A DNA stretch of 63,736 nt, counting the filler, from Halocafeteria seosinensis (taxonomy: Eukaryota), in assembly GCA_001687465.1 (NCBI GenBank). It is 5 parts of 5 records of this genome, joined end to end, with 100 filler letters (N's around TTAATTAATTAA, not from the genome) between each part and the next. Parts side by side here need not be neighbours in the genome. Positions count along the whole stretch, not along the records: positions 1 to 17,435 come from LVLI01000076.1; positions 17,536 to 27,472 come from LVLI01000077.1; positions 27,573 to 47,500 come from LVLI01000082.1; 2 more parts are not named here. One strand, given 5' to 3'. The notes under the pieces are model-generated. The model made no database searches. It was not told the origin of the DNA and saw only the letters and a list, made by a program, of their open reading frames with translations. A program made the position numbers and the translations under genes. This document shows positions 6,243-46,994 of the stretch, piece after piece (the first letter of the stretch is position 1; each line of letters opens with the position of its first letter).

Positions 6243-6305
6243 TCTTATTCTTGTTAAGTAGGCAGCATAGAGTACACTATGCCCTATATGGTGTGTTGAG
6301 TGGCT

Positions 6306-6383
6306 TGTAGCGCGCCGAAGACCCCTCCATAATGTTATAGTATATATACTATAACATTATGGAGGGGTCTTCGGCGCGCTACA
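6306..6383. repeat. Perfect 78-bp palindrome at the host/PLV junction
   Basis: tgtagcgcgccgaagacccctccataatgttatagtata followed directly by its exact reverse complement; centre 6344/6345. Confidence 0.97.
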
Positions 6384-6439
6384 CGTAGGGTGAAAAAAAA
6401 GATTGTTTGATTAAAAAAGTAAAGTTATAGAAGGAAAAG

Positions 6440-7277
6440 TTAAGATAATTATAGTAGTTTTACAAATAAAAGTAATAATTCAAATAAACGCCAATAATTG
6501 TAGAATTAGGAAAATCCATTTACACAGAAGAATTGTAGAAGAAAGTTAGAAAATTCATCTACATAGAGGAGTATTGAAGGGTAATATACAGGAAGGTTGC
6601 ATCACCATTTAAAACAGCCTAAAAATATGATAAATATAAATACTTTTACGATAGAAAATAACTAAAAGCATTAACAATTAAACGATAAGTAATCCCCAGA
6701 GAAATAGGGGTTTTGAAAGGTTCCCAAAATAGAGTTAAACATTCTATTAAAGATTGAACATATTTTTTGAGAACCGTTTTTTTAATATATCAAAAAAAGT
6801 AGCCCAGTGAGTGTTTAACGCCAATAATTATAAAAGTTAACATAATTATGATAGTTTTAGAAATAGAAGTAATAATTCAAATAAACGCCAATAATTATAG
6901 AATTAGGAAAATCCATTTACATAGAAGAAAGTTAGAAAATCCATCTACATAGAAGAATACTGACGGGGTAATACGTAGAAAAGTTAAATAAAAGGCTGGT
7001 TAGTCTTAACGCCAATCAAGAACTCACAGAAATAATACCGGCGGATTAATTACAAAATACAATAAGAAAGAATATTAAAGGGTAATATACAGTAGACTTA
7101 TGAAATCGTTATAATTGAAGCTTAAATGAGATGATAATGAAAACTTTTGAAGTAGAAATTAAAGAAAAGTGTTTTAAAATGAGATAAGAATAATCCTATA
7201 GGAATAAGAGTTTTAGGGGGTTCTCAAAATAAGGTAAAACATTCTATTAAAGATTGAACATATATTTTGGGAACCGT
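6440..7277. repeat. Two imperfect direct copies of a ~400-500-bp AT-rich subterminal unit
   Basis: aagtaataattcaaataaacgccaataatt at ~6470 and ~6867; aaacattctattaaagattgaacata at ~6737 and ~7237. Confidence 0.85.
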
Positions 7278-7398
7278 AAAAATTAGAAAGATAAATAAAG
7301 CCCCTCTTGACGTATATGGGATAACTGAAAAAAAGAAGAATGAGAAAAGAAAAATGGAAGTGGTGTTTAAAACTAATAAACAACACTTACAAATAGAA

Positions 7399-8403
7399 TT
7401 AAATAAGTTTAAGCTTCAAAGAATTCAATTTTCGTAATAATTCCTGCTTGGTTAAGTCTTTTGAATTTACATCTCCATATGGTAATTCTTCTTCCTTTCC
7501 ATTTACTTTCATTTTTATTTTATATTTGTGTATACCGTCATTAGCTTTTCTAACGCTAACGATTTTAACATCTTGTTTTCTATTACTTTCTTTTCCTGTG
7601 TCCTCTTCTTCAGGTTTAGTCTTTTTGGATTTATCAGTGCTACTATCCTTACTATTAAGTTCATCTTTCAAATCACTCTTAATATCATTACATACTGGGT
7701 TAAATTCGGTATCTTTAAGGCGTCTCTTAAAATCATTTTCACTATAATCCAAACAAAAGAATTTAAAATTTTCATTAACAGCGTGTCTAAAAGCGCTCTT
7801 GAAATCTTCTTTAGAAAAACCATTTCCGTGCTCATTAAACAATGTGTCTAATTCTTTATCATTAGCATTAAATACTAAAACTAAATTACTGTTGTTCATT
7901 CTAGAAGAAGGGTTTAAATCTGTATAGCGTTGGGCACTAGTTATAACACTAACATTATAATGACGGGATGTGTTATAAAGTCTATTGATAGCATTATTAG
8001 AATGTTTTTTCATTACGTTTTGATGTATCAAATCTTCAAAAATAAACAATGAAGGTTTTCTAGTCTCTTGCATTGTATCAATCAAATCATTAACAGTATC
8101 ATTACTATAATCAGAAAAAGTTTTTAAAATAAATTTAGGTTTAAGCCTTTGGTGTGCTCTTTGATATTGTTCAATAGTAGTAGCAGTCCCACTAAAAAGA
8201 AAAACAGCACTCAAAGCATCCTTGTAATAATGAAAAACCAGTCTCTTAATGATATGACTTTTACCAGCCCCACTACTACCACTAACAACAGCACGTAAAG
8301 GAAATAACTTTTTAAAAGGTTCCTTTATTTTCTTTGTGTAATCAATTTTCTTACTATCATCTTCATCCTTAATATCTATATCCCATAAGCTGTTCTTACT
8401 CAT
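7399..8403 (-). CDS. A32-like (FtsK/HerA superfamily) DNA packaging ATPase
   Basis: Walker A GSSGAGKS, Walker B-like LFIFEDL, SRHYNVSVITSAQ motif, followed by RMN. Confidence 0.9.
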   Translation of the reverse strand: MSKNSLWDIDIKDEDDSKKIDYTKKIKEPFKKLFPLRAVVSGSSGAGKSHIIKRLVFHYYKDALSAVFLFSGTATTIEQYQRAHQRLKPKFILKTFSDYSNDTVNDLIDTMQETRKPSLFIFEDLIHQNVMKKHSNNAINRLYNTSRHYNVSVITSAQRYTDLNPSSRMNNSNLVLVFNANDKELDTLFNEHGNGFSKEDFKSAFRHAVNENFKFFCLDYSENDFKRRLKDTEFNPVCNDIKSDLKDELNSKDSSTDKSKKTKPEEEDTGKESNRKQDVKIVSVRKANDGIHKYKIKMKVNGKEEELPYGDVNSKDLTKQELLRKLNSLKLKLI

Positions 8404-8457
8404 ATCTATATAATAAGAGTAGAATAAATTAATTACTTTAGATGTGAAAGTAATTAA

Positions 8458-8670
8458 TTAATAGAGGTAAAACCCAAAAGAATAAATGACCATATTTAGA
8501 GGAGGATTACTATCATTATCAATACGTTTTAAATCTTTACAATTCAGTCTATGGTTAAAATGATTAGANTTNCTNATTTTCTTATTACAATAACTACATT
8601 TTCTAAATCTTGAAGGCTTTTTGATATCAAAGATTGTATCAAAGCTTATATCGTATTTTTCCATATCCAT
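8458..8670 (-). CDS. Small putative zinc-finger protein
   Basis: CSYC...H...C pattern; contains ambiguous bases. Confidence 0.5.
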   Translation of the reverse strand: MDMEKYDISFDTIFDIKKPSRFRKCSYCNKKXXXSNHFNHRLNCKDLKRIDNDSNPPLNMVIYSFGFYLY

Positions 8671-8690
8671 ATAAAATAAATCTATATATA

Positions 8691-10061
8691 TTATTTTGAT
8701 GAGGCCGCTGCTCCAGATTTTGATGAGGCTGCTGCTCCTGATTTTTTTGATTTTTGGACTAATGCGTTTTTTCTAGCCTTCCTCTCTGTATTGGGTGATG
8801 GAGGGCCTTTCTTTATATTTGTTTGTTGTGCTTCTCTTTCCGTTCTTCTTCTCATCTTATGAAAAATAGTAGTATATTTAATATCTTTTCTCGCTTTTTG
8901 CAATTCTTTTTTTGATCGGCCTTTATCCAATAGTGTTCTATATAAGTCTTCTTCTGAAGCAGTACTTAATGTTAAACCCTTGTTAGTTTTTAGTTCTTGT
9001 TTTTCTTCTTCAGTCAATAACCCCCATAATTCGTTTTTATTTGTTCGTGGGTCGTAATTATATTCTCTCATAAATTCGTTAACATCTTTTTCAAATTCTT
9101 TTTGGGCTTCCTCCTTACTAAGCCTTCCTTTTTGTGTTCCATCTGCTATTTGTGCTAAAGTTGATGAAGAAAGTTTAGATTTTTCTCCTTTACCACTTTC
9201 ACCTTCTCCACCTTCAAAACCTTCACCTGAAGCTTCACCAGATGCTTCACTAGATGCTGCTGCACCCTCTCCTACATCACCTTCTGAACTACTCATAAAC
9301 CGCATAACATTACTACCGGGTATTTGTTGAAAGGAAGCAGTTGATGTATTTAAACCACCTCTAGTTTCATTTCTTACTAACTGCCCATTTCTAACTTGGG
9401 CTTGCCCAAATGGTTGGGGTTGAGAAGTATTTGGTTGATTAACCATATTTGTTGCACTTTGAACATTTTGGCTTTGTGTGTTGATATCTTTTGGTATTAA
9501 ATCGTTAGGGTCTATTTGATTAACAGCAGCTATATTAGCAGCTAAATTCCTTAACTCAGTATTACTCATATTATCATATCTTGGTTTATGCAATCCATGA
9601 CTTTTAAGTCTATTCAAGATTTCTTCTCTTGTGTTTCTTTGTGGGTCGTTTTTATCCTGTATTTCTCTATTATCAAGGAATTTCCGTAAAGCATCCATTA
9701 TTGGAGGTTTTCCTGGTTTCGTATTAAATGTATCCAGTTTTCCTGGTGTTTCATCATCTCTAGGGTCTATCACTTGTATTTCTTTTGTAGTATCAACATC
9801 TTCTACTTGTAATCCCCTATAATCTACTGGAGGAGGAATTCTATAGTCATTAAAAAAACCGTGAGGGTTATATGGAGGAAACAAATTAGTATCCATATTA
9901 TTGGAAGGCAAGTATGAAGGATATAAAGTTTCTCTATTTCCATCAGTCTCTGTGTTAGAGATTAAATATCCTTCTTTATCAATAATTGTTCCATATTTAT
10001 TTTCCCTTTCTATTGTTTGAAAATTATTTTCACTACCTCTAGTATAACCTTTTTTAAACAT
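8691..10061 (-). CDS. Hypothetical PLV protein (456 aa), low-complexity middle and basic C-terminus
   Basis: Long ORF in the AT-rich element with an upstream TCTA motif; no recognised domain. Confidence 0.7.
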   Translation of the reverse strand: MFKKGYTRGSENNFQTIERENKYGTIIDKEGYLISNTETDGNRETLYPSYLPSNNMDTNLFPPYNPHGFFNDYRIPPPVDYRGLQVEDVDTTKEIQVIDPRDDETPGKLDTFNTKPGKPPIMDALRKFLDNREIQDKNDPQRNTREEILNRLKSHGLHKPRYDNMSNTELRNLAANIAAVNQIDPNDLIPKDINTQSQNVQSATNMVNQPNTSQPQPFGQAQVRNGQLVRNETRGGLNTSTASFQQIPGSNVMRFMSSSEGDVGEGAAASSEASGEASGEGFEGGEGESGKGEKSKLSSSTLAQIADGTQKGRLSKEEAQKEFEKDVNEFMREYNYDPRTNKNELWGLLTEEEKQELKTNKGLTLSTASEEDLYRTLLDKGRSKKELQKARKDIKYTTIFHKMRRRTEREAQQTNIKKGPPSPNTERKARKNALVQKSKKSGAAASSKSGAAASSK

Positions 10062-10282
10062 TTTCTTTTATATTATATTATTAGATATTATTATTATTTT
10101 TTAATATTCTATGTGCTAAATTATATTTCATTGGTTGAAAGAATTTTGCTAGAGTTAAATAGTATAAACCATAAAAGAAGCCCATAACAGTTCCATTACA
10201 CTCATTTTTTACATCTCTTATTTCATTGTCCGTAATTCTATCCATTTTCTATTTACTATATATTATAGTAGATAGAAAATTA

Positions 10283-11017
10283 TTAAACAAAGTTATCTAT
10301 AGAATGGATTTCTATCAAGTTCTTATTTTCATTTATCTGTAGTGTTTTCACTTCTGCTTTTGAAAACAAGGGTGATAAAATGCTCACCGGGTCAGCCGCA
10401 GTTCTAATTATTGTTATGTTATTTTGATTAAATTTAGTAAAGTTCCTTCTAATATCATTTTGATTAAAACCTGGGTTGAAAACAATAACATCATTAACAT
10501 TGTCTTTTAGTGCATTTATGTTAAAACATATATTTCCACCTAGAGAATGCCCTGTAATAGTTATCCTTGAAGGATTGTAAAATCCTACAATACTATCATA
10601 TTGTTCTAAATCTGTTTTAAATCTTCCTGTTGATAACTCATTACCTTTACCAAGCTCATAATCTGTTATAACATCTTTAATACTCTTTGTTCCTCTATAA
10701 CCTATAATTAAATGATTAGAATTCTTATCTAAATAAACTGCTGTTGATGTATCACTTCCTCTATCTTGTAGTTCAAAATTACCAATAAAAGGTTCTCTAT
10801 TTGTTTTGTAGCTTTGACTACTCACCTTCGCAGCAGTTTGTTCTAAATCACTCATTTCATCAATACTCTCTATTTTGTTTTTATTGAAAATATTTAATTT
10901 ACTAATACCTTGTTTTACCTTCTCAATTGAACGTCCTATTTTTTTTCTTCCTCTATTAAATAACCTACCTACACGTTTAGCAGTATCCCGTATTTTTCTA
11001 CCTAATTTATTAACCAT
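10283..11017 (-). CDS. Class 3 lipase (alpha/beta hydrolase) with basic amphipathic N-terminus
   Basis: IGYRGT, GHSLGG nucleophile elbow, FNPG, DPVS, and C-terminal HSIDNF. Confidence 0.88.
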   Translation of the reverse strand: MVNKLGRKIRDTAKRVGRLFNRGRKKIGRSIEKVKQGISKLNIFNKNKIESIDEMSDLEQTAAKVSSQSYKTNREPFIGNFELQDRGSDTSTAVYLDKNSNHLIIGYRGTKSIKDVITDYELGKGNELSTGRFKTDLEQYDSIVGFYNPSRITITGHSLGGNICFNINALKDNVNDVIVFNPGFNQNDIRRNFTKFNQNNITIIRTAADPVSILSPLFSKAEVKTLQINENKNLIEIHSIDNFV

Positions 11018-11101
11018 TATAATAAGTTATGATATTTATTTTTATTATATCTATATAACAAAAATAAATAAATTAGATACCAACACTAACAACTCTCTCA
11101 G

Positions 11102-12403
11102 CTATTTGACCACACGCTTATGAATGGTATAGATATAAATGTTATGAGGAGAAGTTATATTACTACTCAAATTTAGTGAAATTTCCAATTGAGAACCTCC
11201 AGAAGTAGTAGATAAAGCATTGTTTAAGACTTCGGGATTAACGTGGGGGAGTAATTCGGTATTTACGCATAAAGGAGTATGAGTATTTTTGAAAGTATCG
11301 TAATCTAGGAGACCATTTCCTCCAATATCTGTAAGGAAGCCATATAATTTTCTGTAATTACTATAAGCTTCTTCTAAACCTTGAATACCATCTCTAGTTC
11401 CTAAATCAGTAGAATTAAACCTAACATTATAACTTTCTAGATTAGGAAGATTACATTTAGTGATATTATCAGTGTCTTTATCATCTTGTTTAGGAAATAC
11501 CAACATACAAATACCTTGCAAATTAGAATACTGGACTTGAAGAGTTAAGTTAAATTCTTTCTGATTTTGAGGAAGAGTCCTTTGAAAAACGTCAGCTGCA
11601 CTATCCAAAACAAAACTCAAACCAGTAGGATTATTAGCCATTCTATCATAATATCCTTTAACAATATCATTAGAAGGAAAAACCCATTCCGCCATAAATT
11701 CAACATCTACTAGTTCATAATCAACCGTATCACCTCCTGCTGTGGTTCCTGCTCCGGAAGGTTCCATTACTTTAATAGCTTGGGGCAGCTTATACCTTAT
11801 TTCAATAGGAAAATAAGCAGGCATATACATAGAACCTCTAAAAAAGGCCGTATTATCTAATGGAACAGTCATATTAACAGGTGTTGGATTACTTTGGGTG
11901 TCTTTGTTAGTGAGTAAATCTTTAGTGACTGTATTGCCAGAGCCTAAATATTTCCAGGACTTTTGTAAAGCATTTAGCTCTGCATCGTAATGATTTTGAG
12001 CAGCTGTTCCTAAATATAAATGCTCACCATAACGTGCTCCTTGCTCTGCTTTTTCTATAATCTGGTCTCCCATCATAATTTCTACATCATCATTAAAAAC
12101 CATCCCACCATCAGATGGAATGTATTTGAATTTTCCAGGATTGTTGCCATCGTCTGAACTTTTATTCTTAAATTTAAATCTTAAATATGAATTATGCCTA
12201 TCTAAAAATGCAGTTGAAGATTGTAAATTGAATTGAATTTCATCCCCCGGTCTATATGGTCCTTTTCCATTAATAGGAATACGATTTCTAGCTTCCCTAG
12301 AATTCAAACTATCTAATATCTTAACATTAGAAGGTTGAAGACGGTTATCAAAATGATATTGGGTTGTGCGTTCACTTTGTAATTGTGTTTCTGATGAAGC
12401 CAT
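11102..12403 (-). CDS. PLV-type double jelly-roll major capsid protein; true stop probably at 11073 after a 1-nt frameshift
   Basis: N-terminal PINGKGPYRPGDEIQFNL..AFLDRHNSYLRFKF pattern, size, and position between penton and lipase; adding one A gives the C-terminus KRVVKIAERVVSVGI*. Confidence 0.8.
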   Translation of the reverse strand: MASSETQLQSERTTQYHFDNRLQPSNVKILDSLNSREARNRIPINGKGPYRPGDEIQFNLQSSTAFLDRHNSYLRFKFKNKSSDDGNNPGKFKYIPSDGGMVFNDDVEIMMGDQIIEKAEQGARYGEHLYLGTAAQNHYDAELNALQKSWKYLGSGNTVTKDLLTNKDTQSNPTPVNMTVPLDNTAFFRGSMYMPAYFPIEIRYKLPQAIKVMEPSGAGTTAGGDTVDYELVDVEFMAEWVFPSNDIVKGYYDRMANNPTGLSFVLDSAADVFQRTLPQNQKEFNLTLQVQYSNLQGICMLVFPKQDDKDTDNITKCNLPNLESYNVRFNSTDLGTRDGIQGLEEAYSNYRKLYGFLTDIGGNGLLDYDTFKNTHTPLCVNTELLPHVNPEVLNNALSTTSGGSQLEISLNLSSNITSPHNIYIYTIHKRVVK

Positions 12404-12477
12404 AGTTTATTATATATTTTAAATAGAAAAAAATATATAATTTATATTCTTCAAAAAACCAAGCTAATCTATATTAT

Positions 12478-12714
12478 TCACCCAAAACCACTTCTATCTA
12501 AAGTTGAACTTATATTGTCTCCTGCTTGAATTAATCTATCTGCTCCAGTTCTTCTTTCTAGTTCATTAACTGCTTGTCCTACAACTGGAATGTCTTTAAT
12601 TTCATCTAATTTCTTCCTTCCCGCTTTCCAAGCGGTGTTTAAACCTCTACCTGCTTTTTTAGCTAAACTGCCTATCTTTCTACCTGCTTTGTTAATATAC
12701 GTTTTTAACGACAT
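12478..12714 (-). CDS. Small basic amphipathic protein (candidate virion core or membrane-active peptide)
   Basis: 78-aa K/R/G-rich ORF with upstream TCTA-N7-TATATA. Confidence 0.65.
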   Translation of the reverse strand: MSLKTYINKAGRKIGSLAKKAGRGLNTAWKAGRKKLDEIKDIPVVGQAVNELERRTGADRLIQAGDNISSTLDRSGFG

Positions 12715-12793
12715 TGTTTTAACTTATATATTTATTGTAGATAATTATATAATTTCTTATAATTTTTATTAGATAATAACAAAAATTATAACT

Positions 12794-13006
12794 TTAATCT
12801 GCTTTTTCTAGTTCATAAGTTTCTTTATGTCTTTCATAATTATTAATCATTGCTTTCATTTGCTCTTCTGGTATACCTAAAGGTTTAGGTAATCTATCAA
12901 TTATTTCACTATGTTTCTTCTCTAGTTCATTATGGTTTCGTATCATTGCATTATAATCTTTAACCTTATCATTTCTTCCCTTTTTACTTCGTTTGTGTTT
13001 TCCCAT
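12794..13006 (-). CDS. Small basic hypothetical PLV protein
   Basis: 70-aa ATG ORF with upstream TCTA-N8-TATATA. Confidence 0.6.
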   Translation of the reverse strand: MGKHKRSKKGRNDKVKDYNAMIRNHNELEKKHSEIIDRLPKPLGIPEEQMKAMINNYERHKETYELEKAD

Positions 13007-13050
13007 ACTCCTATATACTATATGTTAGAAAAATTATTTTGAAAAATAAA

Positions 13051-13268
13051 TTAACTAGTTTTATAAAATTCGAATTCCAAAATTACATTGCCTCCATTGA
13101 GGGATACAATTCTATAATGTTCATCTCGTATTTCTATATCAAAATTATCTATCAATCCATTGTTTATTTCAAACCAAATCATATCATCGTGAGGGAAATT
13201 ATCATTAATAATATCCCCAAAACCCACTCTATTAAGGGCTGTATAAATAATGGGCACCGATTTTTTAA
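13051..13268 (-). pseudogene. C-terminal fragment of PLV minor capsid (penton) protein
   Basis: IDNFDIEIRDEHYRIVSLNGGNVILEFEF resembles single jelly-roll penton C-termini; the 5' part is replaced by GC-rich hairpins. Confidence 0.65.
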
Positions 13269-13344
13269 CCGGGGTTGACACCCCGGCCGGGCTTCAAGCC
13301 CGGATCGCCGGCCCGGGCTCCCTTCCCGGGCGACCTGCTGCAGG
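13269..13344. repeat. GC-rich cluster of tandem hairpins
   Basis: ccggggt-tgac-accccgg, ccgggctt-c-aagcccgg, gcccggg-ctccctt-cccgggc, cctg-ctg-cagg. Confidence 0.9.
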
Positions 13345-13700
13345 TACACTGCTACTACAGCTACTTTCATCAATTATATAGGGTTATATTCCCTAGGATA
13401 CCTTATTCATAAAATGGTGAATGGAAGGAAGAATGTCGTGCCGAAGTTTTAGTATTCATGAGACAGCGTCTTTGGTGTATGCCAGACGGATTCGGCCGGT
13501 GGAGTGCGCGCATGGAGGGTTGGATCTCTGTTACATACGAAATATTTGGTGTTGAAGGGGAACCTATGCCGGTGAAAGTGAATCGACTGCATAGAAGGTG
13601 GGTGACTCGTCGACCAGGTTGGGAAGTGCCCATGAGGAGTGGTGTACAAACTGAAGCACCGGGAGTCTGGAGGATCTTTGTTATAGTTAGAGATACAGGA

Positions 13701-15735
13701 ACTACTATTGAACTATTTGGAGCTTGCGATGATATGTGAAGGCGAGCAGAAGAAGAACGGCATATGGAGAAACTCGGCAGGTTTAATTTCGTAACTCTTT
13801 CGCGGTTACTCAACCCGAAGCCAACGAAAGGATCCTCATTGTAAATACGGAACCTTTGGAATACAATGGAATGTGAGCTATCGATTCCTAGGGGCAGAGA
13901 ATACCGGGTGAGTCTCGCTCACCGAATCCGTAGCCTCTTCGTTATGGACATACCCTGGGGTTGGTAGATAAATAAATCACGGAACCGATTGGGAATGATA
14001 ATGCACCGCTAAGCTCAGCAACTACAGTTCAGAATACCATTGACTATAGCCTGGAGGATCGGGAATATGGAGAGAGTATTTGTGCGCACCCAGGGGGACG
14101 TCAACGCTACTAAGTTAGTGTAACATACCCTCGCACTAATTGGACCCAAGAAGAATCAAGCTTGGGAAATATGCCCTGGGATTGCTGTACTTCCATTCGA
14201 TGTCTGACGATTATTCCTTGATATTCTGAGCATAATAAGGAGGACGACTACTATTGAACTATTTGGAGCTTGCGATGATATGTGAAGGCGAGCAGAAGAA
14301 GAACGGCATATGGAGAAACTCGGCAGGTTTAATTTCGTAACTCTTTCGCGGTTACTCAACCCGAAGCCAACGAAAGGATCCTCATTGTAAATACGGATCC
14401 TTTGGAATACAATGGAATGTGAGCTATCGATTCCTAGGGGCAGAGAATACCGGGTGAGTCTCGCTCACCGAATCCGTAGCCTCTTCGTTATGGACATACC
14501 CTGGGGATGGTAGGTAAATAAATCACGGAACCGATTGGGAATGATAATGCACCGCTAAGCTCAGCAACTACAGTTCAGAATACCATTGACTCGATAGCCT
14601 GGAGGATCGGGAATATGGAGAGAGTATTTGTGCGCACCGAGGGGGATGTCAACGCTACTAAGTTAGTGTAACATACCCTGCGCACCAATTGGATCCAAGA
14701 AGAATCAAGCTTGGGAATATGCCCTGGAATTGGTATACTTCCATTTGATGTCTGACGATTATTCCTTGAAATTCTCAGATAGAAAAACAAGAGAGCGTTT
14801 AGGACCGAATGTGAGCTAACGATTCCTGGTAGTTGGGAAATAAGCTTTCCGAGTGTTCCTCCTCCACCGACTCTGTAGCCTCTTCGTTATGGATATGCCT
14901 TCGGGTTGGTAGACTAATAAGTCACGGAACCGCTTGGGAATGCACCGGTAAACTCAGCAGCTGCAGTTTAATATATTATCAACTAGAGGATGTCAACATT
15001 CCTTCGTTAGGGTAGCATACCCTCGCACATATTGGATCCAAGAAGAATCAAGCTTGGGATATATGCCCTGGGATTGGTATACTTCCAGTTCCGTATACCA
15101 TTGACTCAATAGCGGAAGGGGATGTCAACTCTCGTTTGTTAGGGTAGCATACCCTCGCACTTATTGGATCCAAGAAGAATGAAGCTTGGGAAATACGCCC
15201 TGGGATTGGTATACTTTCATTTGATGTCTGACGATTACTCGTTGATATCCTGAGCAACAAAATAAATAATAAGAGAGTGTTTAGGACCGACTGTGAGCTA
15301 TTGAATCGTTTTAGTTGGACAAATAAATCACGGGACCGATTGGGAATGCACCGCTAAGCTGAGCAACTGCAATTCAGTATACCATTGACTAGGGGATGTC
15401 TACTCTCGTTCGTTAGGGTAGCCACCCCTCGCACTAATTGGATCCAAGAAGAATCAAAGTCGGGAAATATATTGTGCAGGAGATTTCGAATGAGTCTCGG
15501 CCACCGACTACGTAGTCTCTTCGTTATGGATACACCGTGGGATTGGTATACTTCCATTTGATATCTGACGATTATTCGTTGAAATTTTTAGCAACAAAGG
15601 AAGAGAGCGTTTAGGACCGAATGTGAGCTAACGATTCCTGGTAGTTGGGAAATAAGCTGTGCAGCAAATTCCGGTCGAGGCTCGTCCACCGACTGCATAC
15701 CCTCTTCGTTATGGATATGCCTTGGGATTAGTTAC
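13701..15735. repeat. Complex satellite: 546-bp duplication followed by shorter shuffled, diverged modules
   Basis: actactattgaactatttggagc at 13701 and 14247; modules ttggatccaagaagaatcaag and ctcttcgttatgga each recur five times. Confidence 0.9.
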
Positions 15736-15740
15736 ATACT

Positions 15741-16088
15741 ATGCTTGAACGAAAGAAAGAAGTGATCGACACCCTAATTGGATTCGTCGAATCTGAATTA
15801 ACTAGAAGACGAAGATCAGATGAAGATGGAAGGTTTCGGGTAGCAATTAGTCCTTTTCGGGAACCTCGCGGGTGGATTTGTCGGTTTCAGAAAGACCAAA
15901 ATATTCGGGACCAGCTCCGAAGACTTCCGTTTGTCATTAGGCAGGCAGCGTATACTGGTTTCAGAGCATGTCTAGCGTACTGGAACACAGAAGAGCATTT
16001 TGATTTAGTAACAAGAGCTGTTGTGCGTTACTTGAGAAAGCAAGGGTACCGAAAAGCTGCCAACTATCTTAAGAGGAATCCGTTCTAA
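15741..16088 (+). CDS. Hypothetical basic protein (115 aa)
   Basis: Clean ATG ORF right after the satellite; no recognised motif. Confidence 0.4.
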   Translation: MLERKKEVIDTLIGFVESELTRRRRSDEDGRFRVAISPFREPRGWICRFQKDQNIRDQLRRLPFVIRQAAYTGFRACLAYWNTEEHFDLVTRAVVRYLRKQGYRKAANYLKRNPF

Positions 16089-17406: not shown

Positions 17407-17435
17407 TCGTGCTACTCTTAGGAAGAGTACTGGAT

Positions 17436-17535: not shown

Positions 17536-18417
17536 ACAGGTTCAGAGTCTTTCGTTCGCCATTGTAAAGTGTCCTTCCACTAGAGAGTGATTCCATAATC
17601 CGTTGTTCATCCGAATTCAAGGCTAACCGATCCCGTCCCCCCGGTATGTATCGTGAACCATTATAGTGCGAGTTTATATATCCACCCTCGAAAATATCGG
17701 TAAAAGACTGCAGTGAGTGATAAAACTCTTCCGACCGTTCCTGAGCTTCCTGGTTAGACAGGTAAGCAGCCTGACCATTGCCTCCATTGGCTGCACTGTT
17801 GTTGTTACTTGCTTCCGCTGTATTGGAAAACGACGCGACTCTTCCGTGATGGTAGCACTTCCTCTGTACCGTCAATGAGCTATTTGCTTCAAAACTTCGC
17901 CCTCTTCCATATCCTTCTAGAAAGGCACTTGCTTGCCTCGCCTTGGCCATGCGGTAGCGTAGACACCTCATGCTGTCTGGGTAATAATGATGTAATACAG
18001 TTCCTACTGTGGTTTGCCGGGGTCCCTGTAAGGCATACTTTAGCATTTTTTCATGTTTTCTTCTTCTTCAAAAGATCATTCATGCGTTCAATGCTCAACA
18101 CACTACTGATTCAACAAGTCGAAACGTTGTGTGTCATCAATAATACCTCCTGTAGGCCGTGCATACATATAAAGCTGACGTCAAAAAAGTGTCAGTCGTA
18201 CTTCAACAAGGTAAACAATTCGTTGCCTTTGGTGGACCTAGTGAGCTTCACAAAGCAAAAGCACCACTTCATTCTAGCGCTGTGTGTATTCTAGCGCTTG
18301 TATAAAGCAGTTTGTGCAGATGTGATGGGTTATAGGAGTACCCAGACTCCTGCGTTTATCCCTACCTTTTAGGATGTTTACCTCATTGGAAGAAGAGTAC
18401 TTGCTGGCCTTGAAAAC

Positions 18418-20995
18418 ATGGGACGCCATGGGGCTACCTTCAATGAGGTTATGGAGGAGCCCACAAGAGCCATGGGGTACAAGAAGTTCCTCCAGATTCT
18501 CAAGCCGTACTTCGCGCCCCGAAACGTGTCGGATCGTATCCGAGCGTTTGCGTGCTTTGCATGCTTGGGAGCGGCTAAAGTCTGCAGCATTATGGGACCA
18601 GTTTACTTGGGGAATGCCACTGACGAATTAGCAGCGGGAACATTCCCTGCCACTTCCCTAATACTATTTTCTGGGCTGATATTTGGATCGAAAGGCTTCA
18701 ACGAGTTACAGCGGATTATTTACCTGAGAGTAAAAGAAGTGGCAGGTGTCGAATTGGCGGAAACAGTAAGTCACAACAAGTTGGTCCTCGTCAATGGTGA
18801 TGTTAGTGCCTCATGTTTCACTACTCTCCGCAGTCTTTTGCTCATGTGCAAACCTTAAGTTTGAATTGGCATCTAACAAAGAAGTCTGGTGTTGTTTTAC
18901 GAGCCATGGATCGTGGGGTACAAAGCGCGTCTACGGTGGTAGATATGCTATTTCTTCGACTCGTGCCTACCGTCGTCGAGTTGCTCGTACTTGTAGTGAT
19001 CTTCGCCACGGTATTAAATGCTCCGTGGCCGTCTTTGTCGCTCTTTATAGGGTTTAATTTTTTTGCGGTAGTTACATACTTGTTGACCAGATGGCGGCGA
19101 AAGATCAAGACCCGCCGGAATCGCGTAGGTACGTTTGCGCACTCAGCTCTTCGTTCCTATCTGCGGAACATAACCAGCTATGTCACTCATCGCAGATAAT
19201 GAAGCGAATCAGAGAGCCATGGAGGCGTTAACTAACTTTGAAACTGTCAAGTATTTCACAAATGAAAACTACGAGTTGGACCGGTATTCTGATTCGATGA
19301 GGAGGTATATGAGAGCGAGCAAGCAAGCTGAAGTAAGAAGCAAATAGTTGGCTGTTAGACTACATGGATTGCATTGACGCTTCTATTTTCATTGGAAGCG
19401 ATTACAGTATTCTCTTGGTTCGCTCCATATCCTCCAAGAGCTCATCATGAAACTAACTCAATTGAGTGTATTACTGCTTGCTGCTCGCCAAGTCCTAGAT
19501 GGCCCAACTACGGTTGGTGACTTTGTCACCATTAACTCGTACGTTGTGCAAGTATTTATCCCCTTGAGTTTCCTCGGAACAATCTACGGGTACGTTGGTT
19601 CGCGGTGGTATTGTCCATGAAATTATTTTCCGGGGAACGTTACCGTACATGCTCACTTTTGGATGCGTCAGCGTATTGATCAATTCTTACACCGACATGA
19701 CGAATCTCGCTGACTTGTTGGAAGAGAAACCTGACGTGACAGATAAGCCAGATGCGATTAACTTTTACGTGAATCCTTCGAAAGGGGCAGAAATAGAATT
19801 CAAAGACGTTTGGTTCAAGTACCCCCAAACAGTGCGTTATATTCGTTCGTCAAAGTGTTTCGTACAGTCCTTTTGACTGGGTGTATCAATGGGACACAGA
19901 GAGGCACCATCGTGGATACTCGAGACGAATACAGAGAGGGAGAAGATTTGGAAGGGCAGCGCGAGAGTATTGGAAAGAGTGAACCAAGCAAGTCGAATAG
20001 TGCAAAGGGGAAGACTGAGCTAGAAACAGCTCCCTTGTCCAAGAACATCGAAGTGAAGGTGGGAGAAGAGGAGGAACCCGAAGAGCGTTATGTCCTGAAA
20101 GGTATCAGTTTCAAGATCCCTCCTGGTACGACAACTGCTGTTGTTGGACAAACAGGTTCGTATCGTTTCTGATTGTGTGACGTACTCTTGTTTCTTCCCT
20201 TCGTAGCGACATCTGTCTCTCCTTCAGGTGCGGGCAAGTCCACATTATCGCGTCTTCTTTTCCGCTTTTTTGATGTTTCTCAAGGCCAAGTACTAATTAA
20301 TGGATACGACCTTCGAGACCTTACTCAAAAGAGTTTGAGGCAATCTCTGGGTATCGTCCCCCAGGATACCACATTATTTAACGATACTATGGGTAGGTGG
20401 CGCTTTAAGCTGGTGTTGGATTCGTCAACGCAAAGAAGAATGTTGCTTTCCCCTGTGTCCAGAATACAATCTTCGATACGGAAAACCAGAAGCCTCCGAA
20501 GAAGAGTTAGAGAAGGCTGTTTCCGACGCATCTCTTACTGAATTGATTCGACAGCTCCCGGAAGGATATGAGAGCCTGGTAGGGGAGAGAGGCCTTAAAC
20601 TAAGTGGTGGAGAAAAACAGCGTGTGGCCATTGCACGAACATTGCTAAAGGATCCTCCAGTTCTAATTCTTGACGAAGCGACTTCTTCACTCGACTCACG
20701 GACAGAAGCGGAAATCCAAGATGCAATTGCTAAGGTGCGAAGTGGACGCACAGTTTTGATTATTGGCCACAGGTTATCAACTATAGAAGACGCTGATAAT
20801 ATTTTGGTCCTAGACGAAGGCAAGGTCGTAGAGAGTGGAAATCACGAGCAACTTCTGGAGAAGAGGGGATACTATTGCTCACTATGGGAGCAACAGGTTT
20901 ATGGAAAGCAACAGAAAGACACAAACGCTGATGATGACGACCAAGAGAATGCCACCGTGAATGCCAACCACCACACCGAAAATGGCAGACTTTGA
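18418..20995 (+). CDS. ABCB half transporter, ATM1/HMT1 (ABCB6/7)-like, copy 1, multi-exon
   Basis: TMD motifs ([20 protein letters not shown]), intron-split Walker [37 protein letters not shown] introns. Confidence 0.92.
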
Positions 20996-22141
20996 ATGAA
21001 AATGAGACTTCCTATTTGAATTTCCCTCGGTTCCTGATGATCATGATGGGGAAAGCGTTTCTCTGGCTACTGGCTCTGGAAGCTGCTTCTTTTTCTTTCT
21101 CCACTCTTGACCTTCCAATGGTCCAGTTTCAGTCCCATCAGCGTCCCGCCTAACATGCTTGGCGCTTGAATGAAAGAGAGCGATGCTGCTTCCTGTAGGA
21201 TTTCCCTCGTTTCTGGACCTAGTTTGTATCTAGAGATACGTACAAGTGACGTATCATTAGCCATGTAAGACTTCATCACATATTCCTCAAGGAATAATGT
21301 CCGTTCAATTTATTTATCCCACGAAGAACTCCCTTTTTGTTAGGTATCTTAACTTCCGCTCGTTCCTGCCAAAGGAGGGGAATTGGTCAAAGTTCACACT
21401 ATATCCGTAGAATCACTGCGTAGGATGCTTCCAAGTCGTCTGGTGCGCAGGCATTACAAGTTGTACAAGAGATAAATAGACCGAATTTTTGGATTATGTT
21501 ACTCGTTTGTGTATTTATTTTATTAAAAGCAACACGGTTCGTTTTTGACCCAGAGGTTAGGACTTCAGCACTATACATACATGTAGATGTACAGACTGTA
21601 ACACCGATGGAGTGCTCATAATTGAAACGGAGCTCAAAGCACGGGAAATGCTGTAGAAGTCCAGTGAGTGACTATAGTTCCAGACAGTGTTACCATCTGT
21701 ACATGTGCATGTGAGCGACCGTACCGCTACCACGTGACACGTTAGTTGCCTGAACACCACCAGTGGTACAAACTCCAATAACTCCAAGTCGCTATGGTAA
21801 ACGATACGTGTGACTATTGGAGAGAGAGCATTACGGGAAATGTACTACCACGAGCGCGTAACTCCAGCTCTACCGGGTGCTGGGACCTCAGAGGTCCACG
21901 TCGCCAACCTCGAACGAACTTCGCTCAGAGTGAGCGAAATGTTTGCCCGGTTGGAGGTGTAGGTGTTACTTGGTACGTGTTTCTAATTGGCATTGATTCA
22001 TTTGTCATCCTAATGATAACTTATATAAGCAGTTTGTGCAGAGTGGATGGGTTTTAGGACTCCTGCGTTTATCCCTACCTTTTGGTATGTTCAAGTAGAA
22101 ATTACTTCATTCGAAGAAGAGTACTTGCTGGCCTTGAAAAC

Positions 22142-24730: not shown

Positions 24731-25873
24731 ATGAAAATGAGACTTCCTATTTGAATTTCCCTCGGTTCCTGATGATCATGATGGGGAAAGCGTTTCTCTG
24801 GCTACTGGCTCTGGAAGCTGCTTCTTTTCTTCCTCCACTCTTGACCTTCCAATGGTCCAGTTTCAGTCCCATCAGCGTCCCGCCAACATGCTTGGCGCTT
24901 GAATGAAAGAGAGCGATGCTGCTTCCTGTAGGATTTCCCTCGTTTCTGGACCTAGTTTGTATCTAGAGATACGTACAAGTGACGTATCATTAGCCATGTA
25001 AGACTTCATCACATATTCCTCAAGGAATAATGTCCGTTAAATTTATTTATCCCACGAAGAACTCCCTTTTTGTTAGGTATCTTAACTTCCGCTCGTTCCT
25101 GCCAAAGGAGGGGAATTGGTCAAAGTTCACACTATATCCGTAGAATCACTGCGTAGGATGCTTCCAAGTCGTCTGGTGCGCAGGCATTACAAGTTGTACA
25201 AGAGATAAATAGACCGAATTTTTGGATTATATTACTCGTTTGTGTATTTATTTTATTAAAAGCAACACGGTTCGTTTTTGACCCAAAGGTTCACTATACA
25301 TACATGTAGATGTACAGACTGTAACACCGATGGAGTGCTCATAATTGAAACGGAGCTCAAAGCACGGGAAATACTGTAGAAGTCCAGTGAGTGGCTATAG
25401 TTCCAAACAGTGTTACATCTGTACATGTGCATGTGAGCGACCGTACCGCTACCACGTGACACTTTAGTTGCCTGAACACCACCAATGGTACAAGCTCCAA
25501 CAACTCCAAGTCGTTATGGTAAACGATACGTGTGACTATTGGAGAGGGAGCATTACGGAAAATGTACTACCACGAGCGCGTAACTCCAGCTCTACCGGGT
25601 GCTGGGACCTCAAAGGTCCACGTCGCCAACCTCGAACGAAGTTCACCGAACTTCGCTCAGAGTGAGCGAAATGTTTGCCCGGTTGGAGGTGTAGGTGTTA
25701 CTTGGTACGTGTTTCTAATTGGCATTGATTCATTTGTCATCCTAATGATAACTTATATAAGCAGTTTGTGCAGAGTGGATGGGTTTTAGGACTCCTGCGT
25801 TTATCCCTACCTTTTGGTATGTTCAAGTAGAAATTACTTCATTCGAAGAAGAGTACTTGCTGGCTTGGAAAAC

Positions 25874-27472
25874 ATGGGACGCCACGGGGCTATCTTCAAT
25901 GAGGTTATGGAGGAGCCCACAAGAGCCATGGGGTACAAGAAGTTCCTCCATATTCTCAAGCCGTACTTCGCGCCCCGAAATGTGTCGGATCGGATCCGAG
26001 CGTTTTCGTGCTTTGCTTGCTTGGGAGCGGCTAAAGTCTGCAGCATTATGGGACCAGTTTACTTGGGGAATGCCACTGACGAATTAGCAGCGGGAACATT
26101 CCCTGTCACCTCCCTGATATTATTTTCCGGACTGGCATTTGGATCGAAAGGCTTCAACGAGTTACAGCGGATTATTTATCTGAGAGTAAAAGAAGTGGCA
26201 GGTGTCGAATTGGCGGAAACAGTAAGTCACAACAAGTTGGTCCTCGGTCAATGGTGATGTTAGTGCCTCATGTTTCACTACTTTCCGCAGTCGTTTGCTC
26301 ATGTGCAAACCTTAAGTCTGAATTGGCATCTAACAAAGAAGTCTGGTGTTGTTTTACGAGCCATGGATCGTGGGGTACAAAGCGCGTCTACGGTGGTAGA
26401 TATGCTATTTCTTCGACTCGTGCCTACCGTCGTCGAGTTGCTCGTACTTGTAGTGATCTTCGCCACGGCGTTAAATGCTCCGTGGCCGTCTTTGTCGCTC
26501 TTTATAGGGTTTACTCTTTACGCGGTAACCACTTACTTGTTGACCAGATGGCGGCGGAAGATTAGGACTCGTCAGAATCGAGTAGGTACGTTTTGCGCAC
26601 TCATCTCTTCGTTCCTATCTGCGGAACATAACCAACTCTGTCACTCGTCGCAGATAATGAAGCGAATCAGAGAGCCGTGGAGGCGTTAACTAACTTTGAA
26701 ACTGTCAAGTATTTCACAAATGAAAACTACGAGTTGGACCGGTATTCTGATTCGATGAGGAGGTATATGAGAGCGAACAAGCAAACTCAAGTAAGAAGCG
26801 AATAGTTGCTGTTAGACTACATGGATTGTATTGACGCTTCTATTTTCATTGGAAACGATTACAGTATTCTCTTGGTTCGCTCAATATCCTCCAAGAGCTC
26901 ATCATGAAACTAACTCAATTGAGTGTATTATTGCTTGCTGCTCGCCAAGTCCTAGATGGCCCTACTACCGTTGGTGACTTTGTCACCATTAACTCGTACG
27001 TTGTGCAAGTATTTACCCCCTTGAGTTTCCTCGGAACAATCTACAGGTACGTTGGTTCGCGGTGGTATTGTCCATGAAATTATTTTCTGGGGAACATTAC
27101 CGTACATGCTCACTTTTGGATGCGTCAGCGTATTGATCAATTCTTACACCGACATGACGAATCTCGCTGACTTGTTGGAAGAGAAACCTGACGTAACCGA
27201 TAAGCCAGATGCGATTAACTTCTACGTGAATCCTTCGAAAGGGGCAGAAATAGAATTCAAAGACGTTTGGTTCAAGTACCCCCAAGCAGTACGTAATATT
27301 CGTTCGTCAAAGTGTTCCGTACAATCCTTTTGACTGGGTGTATCAATGGGACACAGAGAGGCACCATCGTGGATACTCGAGACGAATACAGAGAGGGAGA
27401 AGATTTGGAAGGGCAGCGCGAGAGTATTGGAAAGAGTGAACCAAGCAAGTCGAATAGTGCAAAGGGGAAGAC
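25874..27472 (+). CDS. ABCB half transporter, ATM1/HMT1-like, copy 3 (cut by contig end)
   Basis: Third tandem copy running into the linker. Confidence 0.88.
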
Positions 27473-27572: not shown

Positions 27573-27624
27573 CCTGTCGGCATACCCAGAGTCTATACGC
27601 AGAGACGAAGCTTCCTATGAGCAA

Positions 27625-31333: not shown

Positions 31334-32035
31334 CATTCGTCTACCAAACCTACAAGTGCTCACCTTTTGAAGGAGCTGTATGATAGCCTATCATTGATAG
31401 GCCGTCCACGGTGCCCTGTTTGTAAGGGATCTTCTCCTACGCTGTTCGGTGCAGCGGAGCAACTGTAGAATGCTGTGCAAGTGGTTGCATTTAGTAATGC
31501 CCAATACGGCGTATGAAGGGAGGCTAATGGGGCAAGTAGTATTGGCCCAGTACCAAATGGTAATGGGTACGTACTATAGTTGAAGTTAAATACACACACA
31601 GAAATTGTTAGTGTGTTGTGACACTTTGTGTTTCTTTCAATAAGCCTTGTATGTGAGTCAATGGTGTACAATGCACCGTGTATTGAGAAATTGTGTGTGT
31701 TCAACATGTATCAAAATACGTAATGTCGTATTCACAGCAAGCTTATGGAAAATATCACATGAACATTGTTGGTGTGGTGGAGGTGTTACCGATTAACAGA
31801 AAGGTGGGGAAGGGAACAAAGGGTCCATAGCTTGCCAGGGCGCGTACAAGGAAACACAGTCAGCCTTTATATCCTTGACTGCAAGAAGATGAAGATGTTC
31901 ATTGTTGCCAAGTGTACTACAGCTGTCAGAGTGTAGTTAAGACGGCAAAGAGGGTGGATTCATTACATTTGTTGCGTTTCTTAGCAGGATCAACTGCGTT
32001 TCCTTAATCCCGAAATCACTCCAATAATAAAAAAA

Positions 32036-34047: not shown

Positions 34048-34451
34048 GATGGACCTGCAAACTCTGACTTGGGAACGGCGGAGGTCGGAATGACCATAGT
34101 TGCAAAGAATCGTGTAAAACAATACCATACCGGTATAAAATAAAGTACATCTGATGTGGTCATTCAATGCCTCGAAATACCCTGACGTTTGTAGGTAGTG
34201 AAACTGATTCTGTACCCCGGAAAGTGTACGTTGATAGAAATGGTGTCACGCATGTGCAATATTGGTATGCGTCACTACATGATCGAGCATGTGGATCGTC
34301 TTTTTCGTTGTCTTCGTCGTTAGTGAGGTCAATGTCAATGTGCGGTTCGTTGTATCTCCTTGGTCCTCTAGTATAAATTCCATGGGTCGCCGTCTGCGAG
34401 ATACGTTCCAGGCAGGCATCGACTTCGGAATGCACATGCGCAACACCTTGG

Positions 34452-39960: not shown

Positions 39961-41336
39961 AACATGTTTTTGTCCACAACTTCCATATGTTGTTTCAGAG
40001 ATCCATGAGCCTTCTTCTCCGCCGCTGTACAAAGTGATTTCTACGCTCGCTTCCATGCTTTGTTCTCGTTCGTTCGGGTAATGTTAATCATTGCTTCTTT
40101 GCCACAGTAAGCGATCTCTACCCCACGGGGCTGCTTCACTAGCTGATCAAACAGTCTGACCGTGCGCTGCGCGCTCCCTCGTACAGTATCAAATGCCTGT
40201 TTTCTTGTCCTCTGTAGTACCGACTCTGTCAGTGCTTGACCTGGGTGTAGGTAGTTCTTAAGCATCGCTGCAAAAGTTCGTGAGCACGCTGGAAGGAAGG
40301 TGGGCCATCAGTCACATCTTCGTCGTCGGGAGCGGTACTAGGGGATTAACGAGAGATGTGCAGAAAGTTGCCAGTTGTTTCGCCGTATAATAACAAGAAT
40401 TAGGCGGCCCTGCTCCATCATATTGATATTCCCCTGAAATTGCTGTTGCAGGAATGCTAACAGCAGTCACCTTCCACGGCACACACACAAATGTGACAGA
40501 TAGCCCACCGGCCGGGAAGTTGACCACATCCTCTTCCACGGCAGAGTAGGAAAAGCTGCATTTAGTAATGCCCAATACGGCGTACCGTATGGAGGGAGGC
40601 GTAGCGGCTGTAGCCTCGGCTAAGGGGTACTTACTATAGTTGAGGTTGAGTACACATAACTGTGACATAAGTATCTATGGAAGTTACATAACTTCGTTGA
40701 AACTGACCGCTGGAACGGCTCTTTCTGTCACTGTGGGAGAGTTTCAAAGTTTCACACCTTGAACCCTCCGAAGTTGTCCCAACGGCTCTCTCGAACCCCA
40801 CGAATGGGCCACGATGGGGAACATGATAGTTAGTGCTACCAAATGAAGGTTGAGGGTCAAAGAGAAAGACAGTCGCTCAACATAGTTTGTTAAGTACCCA
40901 TTGCGGGGATAAAATTACAGGTAAGGGATAACTTATAGCAGGAAAAACTGCTTTCAACAACACACCCTACAACGCTTTCTTCATCAACACAAATCACATT
41001 GAAGTACAATGAGAGTTTTTGTTGGATAAAAAACTCATGCCATACACATTTGTAAACACACACGAGTCATTCTATTACTAAGGCAATGGGTATGCATACC
41101 ACGCAGTTGAGGCTTGGCGATGGAAGGGGAAGAGCAGTCCTATGACTGTAAGTATTCCTCTCTGTGTTTTTCTTGCAGTTAGTTTAGATGAATGTTTGGT
41201 TTAATTTGTTTTTGTTGTATAGTTTCATCAGCCAGGGCTTTTCAAACGAACCTGAAGGTATCGTATGCGCTCAACGATCTTGCTGATGCCTTGTACGACA
41301 AGTACGATAGAGTCCAGGTCCAATCGATCGTCATGA

Positions 41337-42131
41337 GTGGTATACGCAGCGAACTCAGCCGTCTGCGAAGATAGGAAAAAAGGTGGTGCTCGAAATGTCG
41401 TTTCTTCAGAAGAAGCTGAGCAAAGGTGGGACCTGCGAATATTGAAACATCAGTTAAGCAAGCTTAAGTCATACTCTATCTGCCAAAATTTGGAGGACCA
41501 AGAAATGATCACACACTTCTCCAGTCAGTTAGATCAGATTGATGCCCAAGCAGAAGGCAACGTTGAAAACGACGATGACGACGAAGAAGACCGACATCCT
41601 GAGATTATGCGTCCTCCACATTTTGTTATCGGAACGATAAAGTGGCTTTGCTATTGCATGTCCGATAAATGTACTGAGGCCAAGTGGACAAAGCTGCAGT
41701 CCATAGTCAAGGATATCAGTGGTTATTTTGACCATTTGTCTTCCACTAAGCCAGTATTGCCATTGCCAGAGTCATCAGGCGATTCTAAAGGGGCGTTTAC
41801 CGCAGCATATACAGAACAAGGGTCAGCTGAACATAAAAGCGAAAACAAAGTTTCATATGGAGATACTGATGTGCATGGATTACTGAACAGTTTGCAGATA
41901 GCCNAAACTGGCAATGAGAAGTACAGCATTGCAAAGCAGTTGGTGGACACAAAATTGAAGCGGAACGAACAGTTCTCCGATGAAGAAGAAAAGCTCATCC
42001 CTTTAGAGGACGTGTTCTTCCTTGAAGATGTGTGGATAGAACGTCAACACCAGATTTACTGCAAGAAAATGGGGGTTGAAGGAGAGAATAATATGAGGAA
42101 AATATATCATAAGGGATACATTCACATATAA
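41337..42131 (+). CDS. Hypothetical host-like protein whose 3' end runs into the virophage hairpin
   Basis: 264-aa ORF with host-like GC; its last codons lie inside the palindrome arm. Confidence 0.4.
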   Translation: MVYAANSAVCEDRKKGGARNVVSSEEAEQRWDLRILKHQLSKLKSYSICQNLEDQEMITHFSSQLDQIDAQAEGNVENDDDDEEDRHPEIMRPPHFVIGTIKWLCYCMSDKCTEAKWTKLQSIVKDISGYFDHLSSTKPVLPLPESSGDSKGAFTAAYTEQGSAEHKSENKVSYGDTDVHGLLNSLQIAXTGNEKYSIAKQLVDTKLKRNEQFSDEEEKLIPLEDVFFLEDVWIERQHQIYCKKMGVEGENNMRKIYHKGYIHI

Positions 42132-42301
42132 CAGGGGATTATTCCCAAAATTTTATAGCAGGGGGTAAAACCCTAAATCCACAGGGAACCTACTACCTGA
42201 AGGTAGTAGTCCTATACATCTAGGGCTTAATCCTCTATAATAAAACTCAGGGGTTTATCCTCAATCATATGGGGATGTATCCTTTATGATACATTTTCCT
42301 C
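42095..42301. repeat. ~207-bp imperfect palindrome at the host/virophage junction
   Basis: Outer arms gaggaaaatatatcataagggatacat / atgtatcctttatgatacattttcctc (2 mismatches in 27 nt); core ctactacct-ga-aggtagtag at 42190-42209. Confidence 0.9.
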
Positions 42302-42394
42302 GTGGTTGTGAAAATTACACTTAAATTTACACTCAAAATTAACTTTTAAATTACACTCAAAATTTCATTTTTAAATAAGTAGCTTGAAAGCGAA

Positions 42395-42542
42395 GCGTGG
42401 TTATTGGCTTGTAGTCCGAAGCTACAATGACCGAGGACAGATGCTTTGAAAACCATCTGTAATACTTCAAACTCAAATAATTTTATTTCGCTGGTGCTTT
42501 GCGTGGTTATTGGCTTGTAGCCTGACGCTACAATGACCGAGG
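42395..42542. repeat. Two 42-bp direct repeats, each a stem-loop with a variable loop
   Basis: gcgtggttattggcttgtag-N7-ctacaatgaccgagg at 42395-42436 and 42501-42542. Confidence 0.92.
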
Positions 42543-46982: not shown

Positions 46983-46994
46983 GCTTGTAGTCCT

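Follow-up and report, generated by a model that had tools for sequence, protein, structure and literature searches.

The terminal hairpins of parvoviruses and poxviruses are self-priming, fold-back genome ends that are incompletely paired or branched. They are cited as the model for terminal palindromes in endogenous viruses of the protist Halocafeteria seosinensis (bioRxiv 10.64898/2026.07.28.741278, hereafter the preprint), which are described for virophage subtypes 1, 2, 5 and 6 and for Polinton-like virus (PLV) subtype 4. According to the preprint text, these palindromes lie within terminal inverted repeats (TIRs), beside target-site duplications (TSDs), and are tied to non-pPolB replicases and to particular integrases of the retroviral type (RVE); hairpin priming is put forward there as a proposed, untested model. 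Mavirus and the endogenous mavirus-like elements (EMALEs) of Cafeteria burkhardae are likewise endogenous virophages, and the word stem 'palindrom' is absent from the main text that describes them (PMC8547959). Here we analysed a 63,736-nt stretch of H. seosinensis DNA (assembly GCA_001687465.1; the window), composed of five contigs joined by spacers. It holds two AT-rich viral elements: E1, best read as a PLV-type fragment, within contig 1, and E2, a virophage, within contig 3.

The two elements resemble those of the preprint in that a PLV and a virophage occur in one protist genome, are AT-rich relative to the host and carry a junction palindrome (52 nt in subtype 5 of that work). Fragments lacking core genes also occur in that set. 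They differ in that the palindrome of E2 is 207 nt long and imperfect, and in that one end per element is present here. A junction palindrome in both a PLV and a virophage of one protist is already in print in the preprint; among the papers listed, no other dealt with terminal palindromes of PLVs or virophages, and the preprint text mentions no motif shared by PLV and virophage ends. A reading of this DNA made from the sequence alone (the sequence-only reading) had contrasted such ends with the TIR and TSD ends of characterised elements, a contrast removed by the position of the preprint palindromes. An emulated version of the preprint screen (arm ≥20, mismatches ≤4, gap ≤10) gave three matches in the window; it recovered the E1 palindrome and missed that of E2, owing to an indel and a degenerate middle. 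Since the published settings would miss the E2-type form, such ends may be undercounted. The additions made by this locus are modest: the long, imperfect E2 palindrome missed by the emulated screen, a point to which the preprint supplements may be relevant, and TCTA promoter cores on the PLV-type E1.

On balance, we favour the explanation that the window contains two capsid-encoding viruses, one a truncated PLV-type virus and the other a virophage, whose junction palindromes are likely unfolded hairpin tips, and that a 10-nt word shared by the two ends is likely coincidental. The ends of the elements comprise the following features:

6255..6305, no strand: 51 nt assignable to neither host nor virus, including TGGCT, the first half of the shared word; the junction falls within this stretch
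6293..6311, plus strand: E1 copy of the shared word, 16/19 identical to 42503–42521, with 11 nt exact
6306..6383, no strand: perfect terminal palindrome of 78 nt (39-nt arms, no loop), starting TG and ending CA
6384..7398, no strand: AT-rich non-coding kilobase, a TIR-like interior with direct repeats inside (98-nt and 59-nt pairs)
13269..13345, no strand: four adjacent GC-rich hairpins at the right break point of E1 (z ~−3.1; 0/200 shuffles as stable, on each strand)
42095..42301, no strand: imperfect terminal palindrome of 207 nt, with 75/105 aligned arm columns identical
42395..42436, plus strand: E2 42-nt repeat, copy 1, a bulged stem-loop with TGGCTTGTAG-N7-CTACA (fold z −3.0 on the plus strand, −1.1 on the minus strand)
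42501..42542, plus strand: E2 42-nt repeat, copy 2 (fold z −2.2 on the plus strand, −3.3 on the minus strand)

The host part of the window has a GC content of ~45–50% and eukaryotic-type genes, among them a leucine-rich repeat (LRR) gene, a tandem array of ATP-binding cassette (ABC) transporter genes and a phage-type RNA polymerase. Two islands of low GC (~27–37%) are set in it, E1 at ~6300–13400 and E2 from ~42095 up to 47500, where contig 3 ends, and both palindromes sit where the GC content drops from ~45–50% to ~30%. The sequence-only reading had reported a large palindrome at the host junction of each element, and this was borne out, perfect in E1 and imperfect in E2. The palindromes, the three sites of the 10-mer and the CTACA and CCGAAG words were all found where it had placed them, and the spacer positions confirm that E1 and E2 are on separate contigs.

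Outside the E1 palindrome, no perfect arm in the window exceeds 13 nt, compared with 39 nt at 6306–6383. In the E2 palindrome, the outer 24 nt match at 22/24 positions, the middle is degenerate and contains AGGG..CCC mini-hairpins, and the tip is perfect over 8–9 bp. Folded as DNA, it gave z = −6.6, with 0/200 shuffles as stable. The palindromes of both elements exceed chance by a wide margin. No local sequence match was found between the E1 and E2 palindromes. The incompletely paired or branched hairpins of parvoviruses and poxviruses presumably resemble the E2 tip and the hairpin cluster at the right of E1; unlike in those viruses, E1 and E2 are integrated, and their assembled parts encode neither a Rep/NS1 nickase nor a resolvase. 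Mini-hairpin units of the form AGGG-N-CCC were seen at 42133 and 42160 (in the E2 palindrome), at 13380 (just right of E1) and at 15009, 15141 and 15415 (in the repeat region beyond E1).

Perfect zero-loop palindromes can arise as fold-back artefacts, and this assembly is fragmented. That the palindromes are fold-back chimeras formed at contig or repeat boundaries is nevertheless highly improbable. Each lies in the interior of its contig, between unique sequences that differ from one side to the other; the E2 arms differ at 30/105 columns, which is not expected of a fold-back artefact; and the same type of end is described from a long-read assembly in the preprint.

If the palindromes are unfolded hairpin tips, the tip of the free genome would fold back and prime replication, following the preprint model. 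For integration, we propose that an RVE integrase, from the missing part of the element or from a sister copy, would nick the hairpin just after CA. The freed 3′ end would join host DNA, and repair would copy the opened hairpin to leave a junction palindrome of the form TG...CA. E1 would then start at 6306, TGGCT would be host target DNA, and the 42-nt repeats of E2 would be the virophage's own sub-terminal stem-loops, in which the stem matters and the loop does not. Retroviral-type integrases follow a TG...CA rule, and the E1 palindrome, which reads TG...CA, fits the step of nicking after CA. The ends thus suggest this nick as a candidate step, and they bear on the replication and integration of PLVs and virophages that have no protein-primed polymerase. 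The E2 end indicates that a palindromic terminus can be long and yet only partly paired.

To the left of E1, homology to a host LRR paralog stops at 6246–6254. The flanking segment, 5893–6254, is a degraded paralog of the neighbouring LRR gene (4287–5213) and ends just short of the junction. Continuation of host homology over 6255–6305 was not significant (shuffle P 0.48), and the composition score over 6247–6305 was −2.6 bits. Because the LRR homology ends at 6246–6254 and 6255–6305 fits neither side, TGGCT may be host DNA. No copy of TGGCT was found at the right side of E1 to mark it as a TSD. A 7-nt direct repeat brackets the element (6272–6278 and 13344–13350) and represents either a TSD or chance.

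The shared word, TGGCTTGTAG, occurs exactly at 6301, 42405 and 42511, and has no other copy on either strand of the window. CTACA lies downstream of it at 6379, 42422 and 42528, and CCGAAG at 6315 and 42416. From these sites the sequence-only reading had argued for a shared end architecture. The palindrome at each junction is common to the two elements, as that reading held; the word is not in equivalent positions, and the palindromes themselves do not match. In E1 the word straddles the outer edge of the palindrome, and in E2 its copies lie inward of the inner edge, by 104 and 210 nt. The CTACA closure in E1 is automatic, because the palindrome starts TGTAG. The two E2 sites form a 42-nt direct repeat; its copies differ at three positions, each of them in the 7-nt loop, where CCGAAG is replaced by CTGACG in copy 2. 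CCGAAG, correctly reported in two of the three loops, is therefore not kept even within one element. The sequence-only reading had overlooked this repeat, and also that the match between E1 and E2 runs past the 10-mer, to 11 nt exact and 16/19.

The design of the test decides whether the match between E1 and E2 exceeds chance. Shuffle P values were 0.017, 0.064, 0.42 and 0.87 for E1 windows of 56, 121, 251 and 1151 nt, respectively, and 64/510 real 121-nt windows from elsewhere matched the E2 end as well as the E1 end does. When every position was treated as a pseudo-junction, 3.4% had a 10-mer match nearby and 0.7% had a match covering the first five bases.

The word was also sought outside the window. 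Motif scans of viral contigs listed at least 120 loci (of ~230 estimated), 12 and 19, giving 151 listed loci in all, partly overlapping. None of the 151 listed loci encoded a detectable relative of the E1 or E2 proteins, and in 132 of them the word lay inside a long open frame. Among the 120 loci listed in the first scan, the best flank identity to the E2 repeat was 8/19. The open reading frames (ORFs) of three loci (L132, L127 and L121) resemble those of unrelated prokaryotic viruses; two of the three have the CTACA closure, with the word inside a long ORF in both. No locus with a related capsid protein was confirmed in viral contigs, metagenome contigs, prokaryote genomes or phage records, while close protein relatives of E1 and E2 exist without DNA context. 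In the literature the shared word was not found tied to virophages; motif figure S7 and the element tables of the preprint may bear on this. Coincidence is favoured because the word positions differ, CCGAAG is gone from E2 copy 2, the loose tests put chance at 0.02–0.5 and none of the 151 listed loci encodes a detectable relative. The shared word is a real match and likely a coincidence, and a common signal is unproven.

Several observations weigh against the favoured explanation. A TG would stand at a palindrome edge by chance in one case out of 16, and E2 fits TG...CA at the outer edge only, its outer T having no partner at the inner edge. The assembled parts contain no integrase, second end or TSD on which the nick-and-open step could rest. 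The segment 6255–6305 could be viral, given the P of 0.48 in the homology-extension test, and if the 7-nt repeat at 6272 and 13344 marks the boundary of E1, the whole 10-mer falls inside the element. Both word copies read inward from the junction. Lastly, only 112 of 123,762 pseudo-junctions (0.0009) have a 10-mer over the first five palindrome bases together with stem closure in E2, the tailored chance being 0.0002 in host DNA and 0.002 in AT-rich E1 DNA. This pseudo-junction test overstates the surprise, because it was shaped after the observation was seen; it is still the main result on this side.

Some of these observations bear on the alternative that the word is a shared cis signal. One nickase or integrase serving both viruses would recognise, on single-stranded DNA in its folded state, an unpaired TGGCT and, after it, a TGTAG(C):(G)CTACA stem whose loop is free, and the E1 loop would have grown into the terminal hairpin. 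To the inward orientation and the tailored chance can be added the 16/19 identity with its 11-nt exact core, the confinement of all differences between the E2 copies to the loop, and the possibility of drawing TGGCT as a bulge in E1 and E2 alike. According to the preprint, integrase and replication genes also move between PLVs and virophages in one host. We nevertheless consider this alternative unlikely. The positions of the word relative to the palindrome differ, CCGAAG is not conserved, and the outer stem of E2 (GGTTAT/ATGACC) is missing in E1; the loose tests gave P of 0.03–0.5, and the 151 listed public loci offered no support. In addition, TCTA precedes 6/8 E1 genes compared with 1/6 E2 genes, which gives no reason to favour a common helper, though E2 is partial.

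The sequence-only reading had proposed such a signal, acted on by one recombinase, nickase or common helper. This finds no support: the word is placed differently in the two elements, the E1 copy may be host DNA over half its length, CCGAAG changes between copies, none of the listed public loci with the motif encodes a relative of the E1 or E2 proteins, and the elements differ in their helper-virus promoter core. The proposal is unlikely rather than refuted, given the tailored chance and the inward reading of both copies. A bolder form of it, in which the PLV and the virophage share a structured end signal, a single swapped integrase or nickase opens the hairpins at CA, and the cis site travels with the enzyme between virus classes, is still more doubtful. 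Were it true, the cross-class signal would be the cis counterpart of the exchange of integrases and replicases between PLVs and virophages outlined in the preprint; the present evidence makes such a signal unlikely.

The identity of the two viruses is given by their genes. In E1 these are:

7399..8403, minus strand: A32-type packaging ATPase, 334 aa (Pfam Pox_A32, E 4.7e-6, above cut-off)
8691..10061, minus strand: ORF of 456 aa with no assigned function (no Pfam or NCBIfam match)
10283..11017, minus strand: lipase-like alpha/beta hydrolase, 244 aa (Pfam Lipase_3, E 5.6e-4, below cut-off)
11102..12403, minus strand: double-jelly-roll major capsid protein, 433 aa, of a non-virophage family (predicted structure, Foldseek)
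13051..13269, minus strand: start-less reading frame, possibly a C-terminal remnant of a minor capsid gene (a lead only)

The 433-aa capsid protein had no Pfam match, including to the Sputnik major capsid families, and has three metagenomic relatives with 77–83% identity. A structure predicted from 26 aligned relatives reached a pLDDT of 84, replacing an earlier, unusable model from four sequences (pLDDT 39), and matched iridovirus and PBCV-1 capsids with E ~1e-16 to 1e-15 in Foldseek. The predicted fold thus points to a double-jelly-roll capsid protein distinct from that of virophages, as in PLVs; the assignment is to PLVs in general, a clade being a matter for phylogeny against the named clades. 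The A32-like ATPase is likewise a PLV trait. E1 measures 7 kb compared with ~14–40 kb for PLVs, and it departs from them also in its replication and integration genes and in the TIR pair. As the sequence-only reading had noted, no integrase or polymerase is visible, with none among 14 E1 and E2 ORFs searched with Pfam or 12 with NCBIfam, and no TIR partner for the left end of E1 was found within the window. Because all three are lacking, the preferred reading of E1 (~6306–13345) is a PLV-type fragment that keeps a single true end, not a complete PLV.

At the other side of E1, the four GC-rich hairpins cut the start-less frame. In the Atlas, the first matches of this frame scored 0.98 and are unnamed; the nearest named cluster is V18-19 at 0.94 (21% of members), a recognition below threshold. 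The frame had no Pfam match, no significant PDB match and no similarity to the E2 minor capsid, and its origin in the terminal part of a minor-capsid gene is no more than a lead. The hairpins are not repeated elsewhere in the window and, against Rfam, gave sub-threshold matches only, none reaching the gathering score. They might mark where another mobile element ends, or constitute a second type of terminus. Adjoining E1 on the right is a complex host repeat (13700–15750) with periods of 546 nt and shorter.

This arrangement would also suit a complete, non-autonomous mini-element of 7.07 kb (6279–13343), mobilised by a full-length virus, with a target duplication of 5–7 nt and unlike ends, the perfect palindrome on the left and the four hairpins on the right. 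E1 is flanked by DNA of host-like GC content on both sides within one contig, and the 7-nt direct repeat at 6272 and 13344 stands next to the last hairpin; EMALE TSDs span 1–9 bp as described in PMC8547959, and fragmentary elements that keep TIRs and TSDs are described in the preprint. Yet six 7-mers are shared between the junction zones where ~3 are expected from the zone sizes, so one 7-nt repeat is unremarkable. The right end moreover cuts a frame resembling a minor-capsid remnant, and there is no TIR pair. We judge a complete mini-element improbable, and retain the truncated PLV-type virus.

For E2, the gene content is as follows:

42620..43168, minus strand: GIY-YIG endonuclease, 182 aa (Pfam E 2.3e-10; TIGR01453 E 1.5e-10)
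43266..44500, plus strand: virophage minor capsid gene, as two ORFs in different frames (break near 43970–43997)
44559..46313, plus strand: virophage major capsid protein, 584 aa (Sputnik_MCP_1st, PF21915, E 3e-21; MCP_V20_C, PF22031, E 7.9e-17)
46354..47462, no strand: three small ORFs without assigned function, after which E2 leaves the contig at 47500

E2 (42095–47500) is a virophage truncated where its contig stops. By sequence similarity, it encodes both a virophage-type major capsid protein and a minor capsid protein, the latter from matches of both ORF pieces to Pfam V18-19 (PF21507; E 1.2e-3 and 9.5e-6, below the curated cut-off). The packaging ATPase and the cysteine protease are not within the 5.4 kb of E2 that is present, E2 being cut by the contig end, and a 155-aa ORF had no Atlas match at ≥0.9. 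Relatives of the major capsid protein have 42–49% identity. The nearest (P0004 and P0007, 49% identity) are EukProt entries, which means that a related virophage capsid appears in a eukaryote protein set.

The stop codon of the GIY-YIG gene lies 78 nt from copy 2 of the 42-nt repeat. Stem-loops downstream of a virophage gene are likewise known from the hairpin polyadenylation signal of Mimivirus and Sputnik, as described in PMC4402537 and PMC6723459, and the E2 stem-loops could be transcript-end hairpins of the GIY-YIG gene under the same rule. The repeats lie 78–225 nt past the stop codon on the minus strand, the gene is transcribed toward them, and copy 2 has a good fold on the same strand (z −3.3). 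Copy 1, however, folds poorly on it (z −1.1) and better on the plus, non-transcribed strand (z −3.0), and unlike the Mimivirus and Sputnik signals, E2 has a conserved, duplicated 42-nt unit near the genome end. A look-alike at 46980–47000, between convergent genes, was rejected as it forms no significant hairpin (z 0.25 and −0.01). A transcript-end role is rather unlikely; it is compatible with the favoured explanation of hairpin tips and a coincidental word, and would make the repeats unrelated to integration.

The 42-nt repeats had no Rfam match at the gathering score (0 in the window), with sub-threshold matches only. A ribozyme, tRNA or other Rfam identity for the repeats and hairpins was rejected on this basis. 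Short tandem repeats flank the 42-nt repeats in the sub-terminal region of E2, at 42311–42376 and 42534–42569 (12/24-nt and 15-nt units).

A TCTA core in AT-rich context is described for mavirus and for the late promoter of Cafeteria roenbergensis virus (CroV) in PMC8547959. The same core lies 18–35 nt upstream of 6/8 E1 ORFs (8403–13006, minus strand; null mean 0.86, 0/5000 shuffles), in a positional window picked after the data had been viewed, and TCTA was the sole G/C-containing 4-mer to reach at least 5/8 E1 ORFs. Upstream of the E2 ORFs it was found in 1/6 cases (P 0.40), E2 being only partly present. In contrast to mavirus and the EMALEs, as described in PMC8547959, TCTA here occurs on the PLV-type element and not on the virophage part. 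No report of a TCTA late-promoter core on a PLV was found in the literature; the preprint supplements may bear on this. The pattern hints that E1 may depend on a CroV-like virus. The promoter cores give no sign of a helper common to E1 and E2, of which E2 is only partly represented.

Two further repeated structures were seen elsewhere in the window. A 3.7-kb element at 48508–52224 with near-perfect TIRs of ~240 nt is probably a DNA transposon; four of its ORFs tested gave no Pfam match, and no obvious TSD was seen. At 17536–27472, an ABC-transporter gene with introns is arranged in a tandem array with a period of ~3.73 kb, comprising roughly three units that are 94–100% identical.

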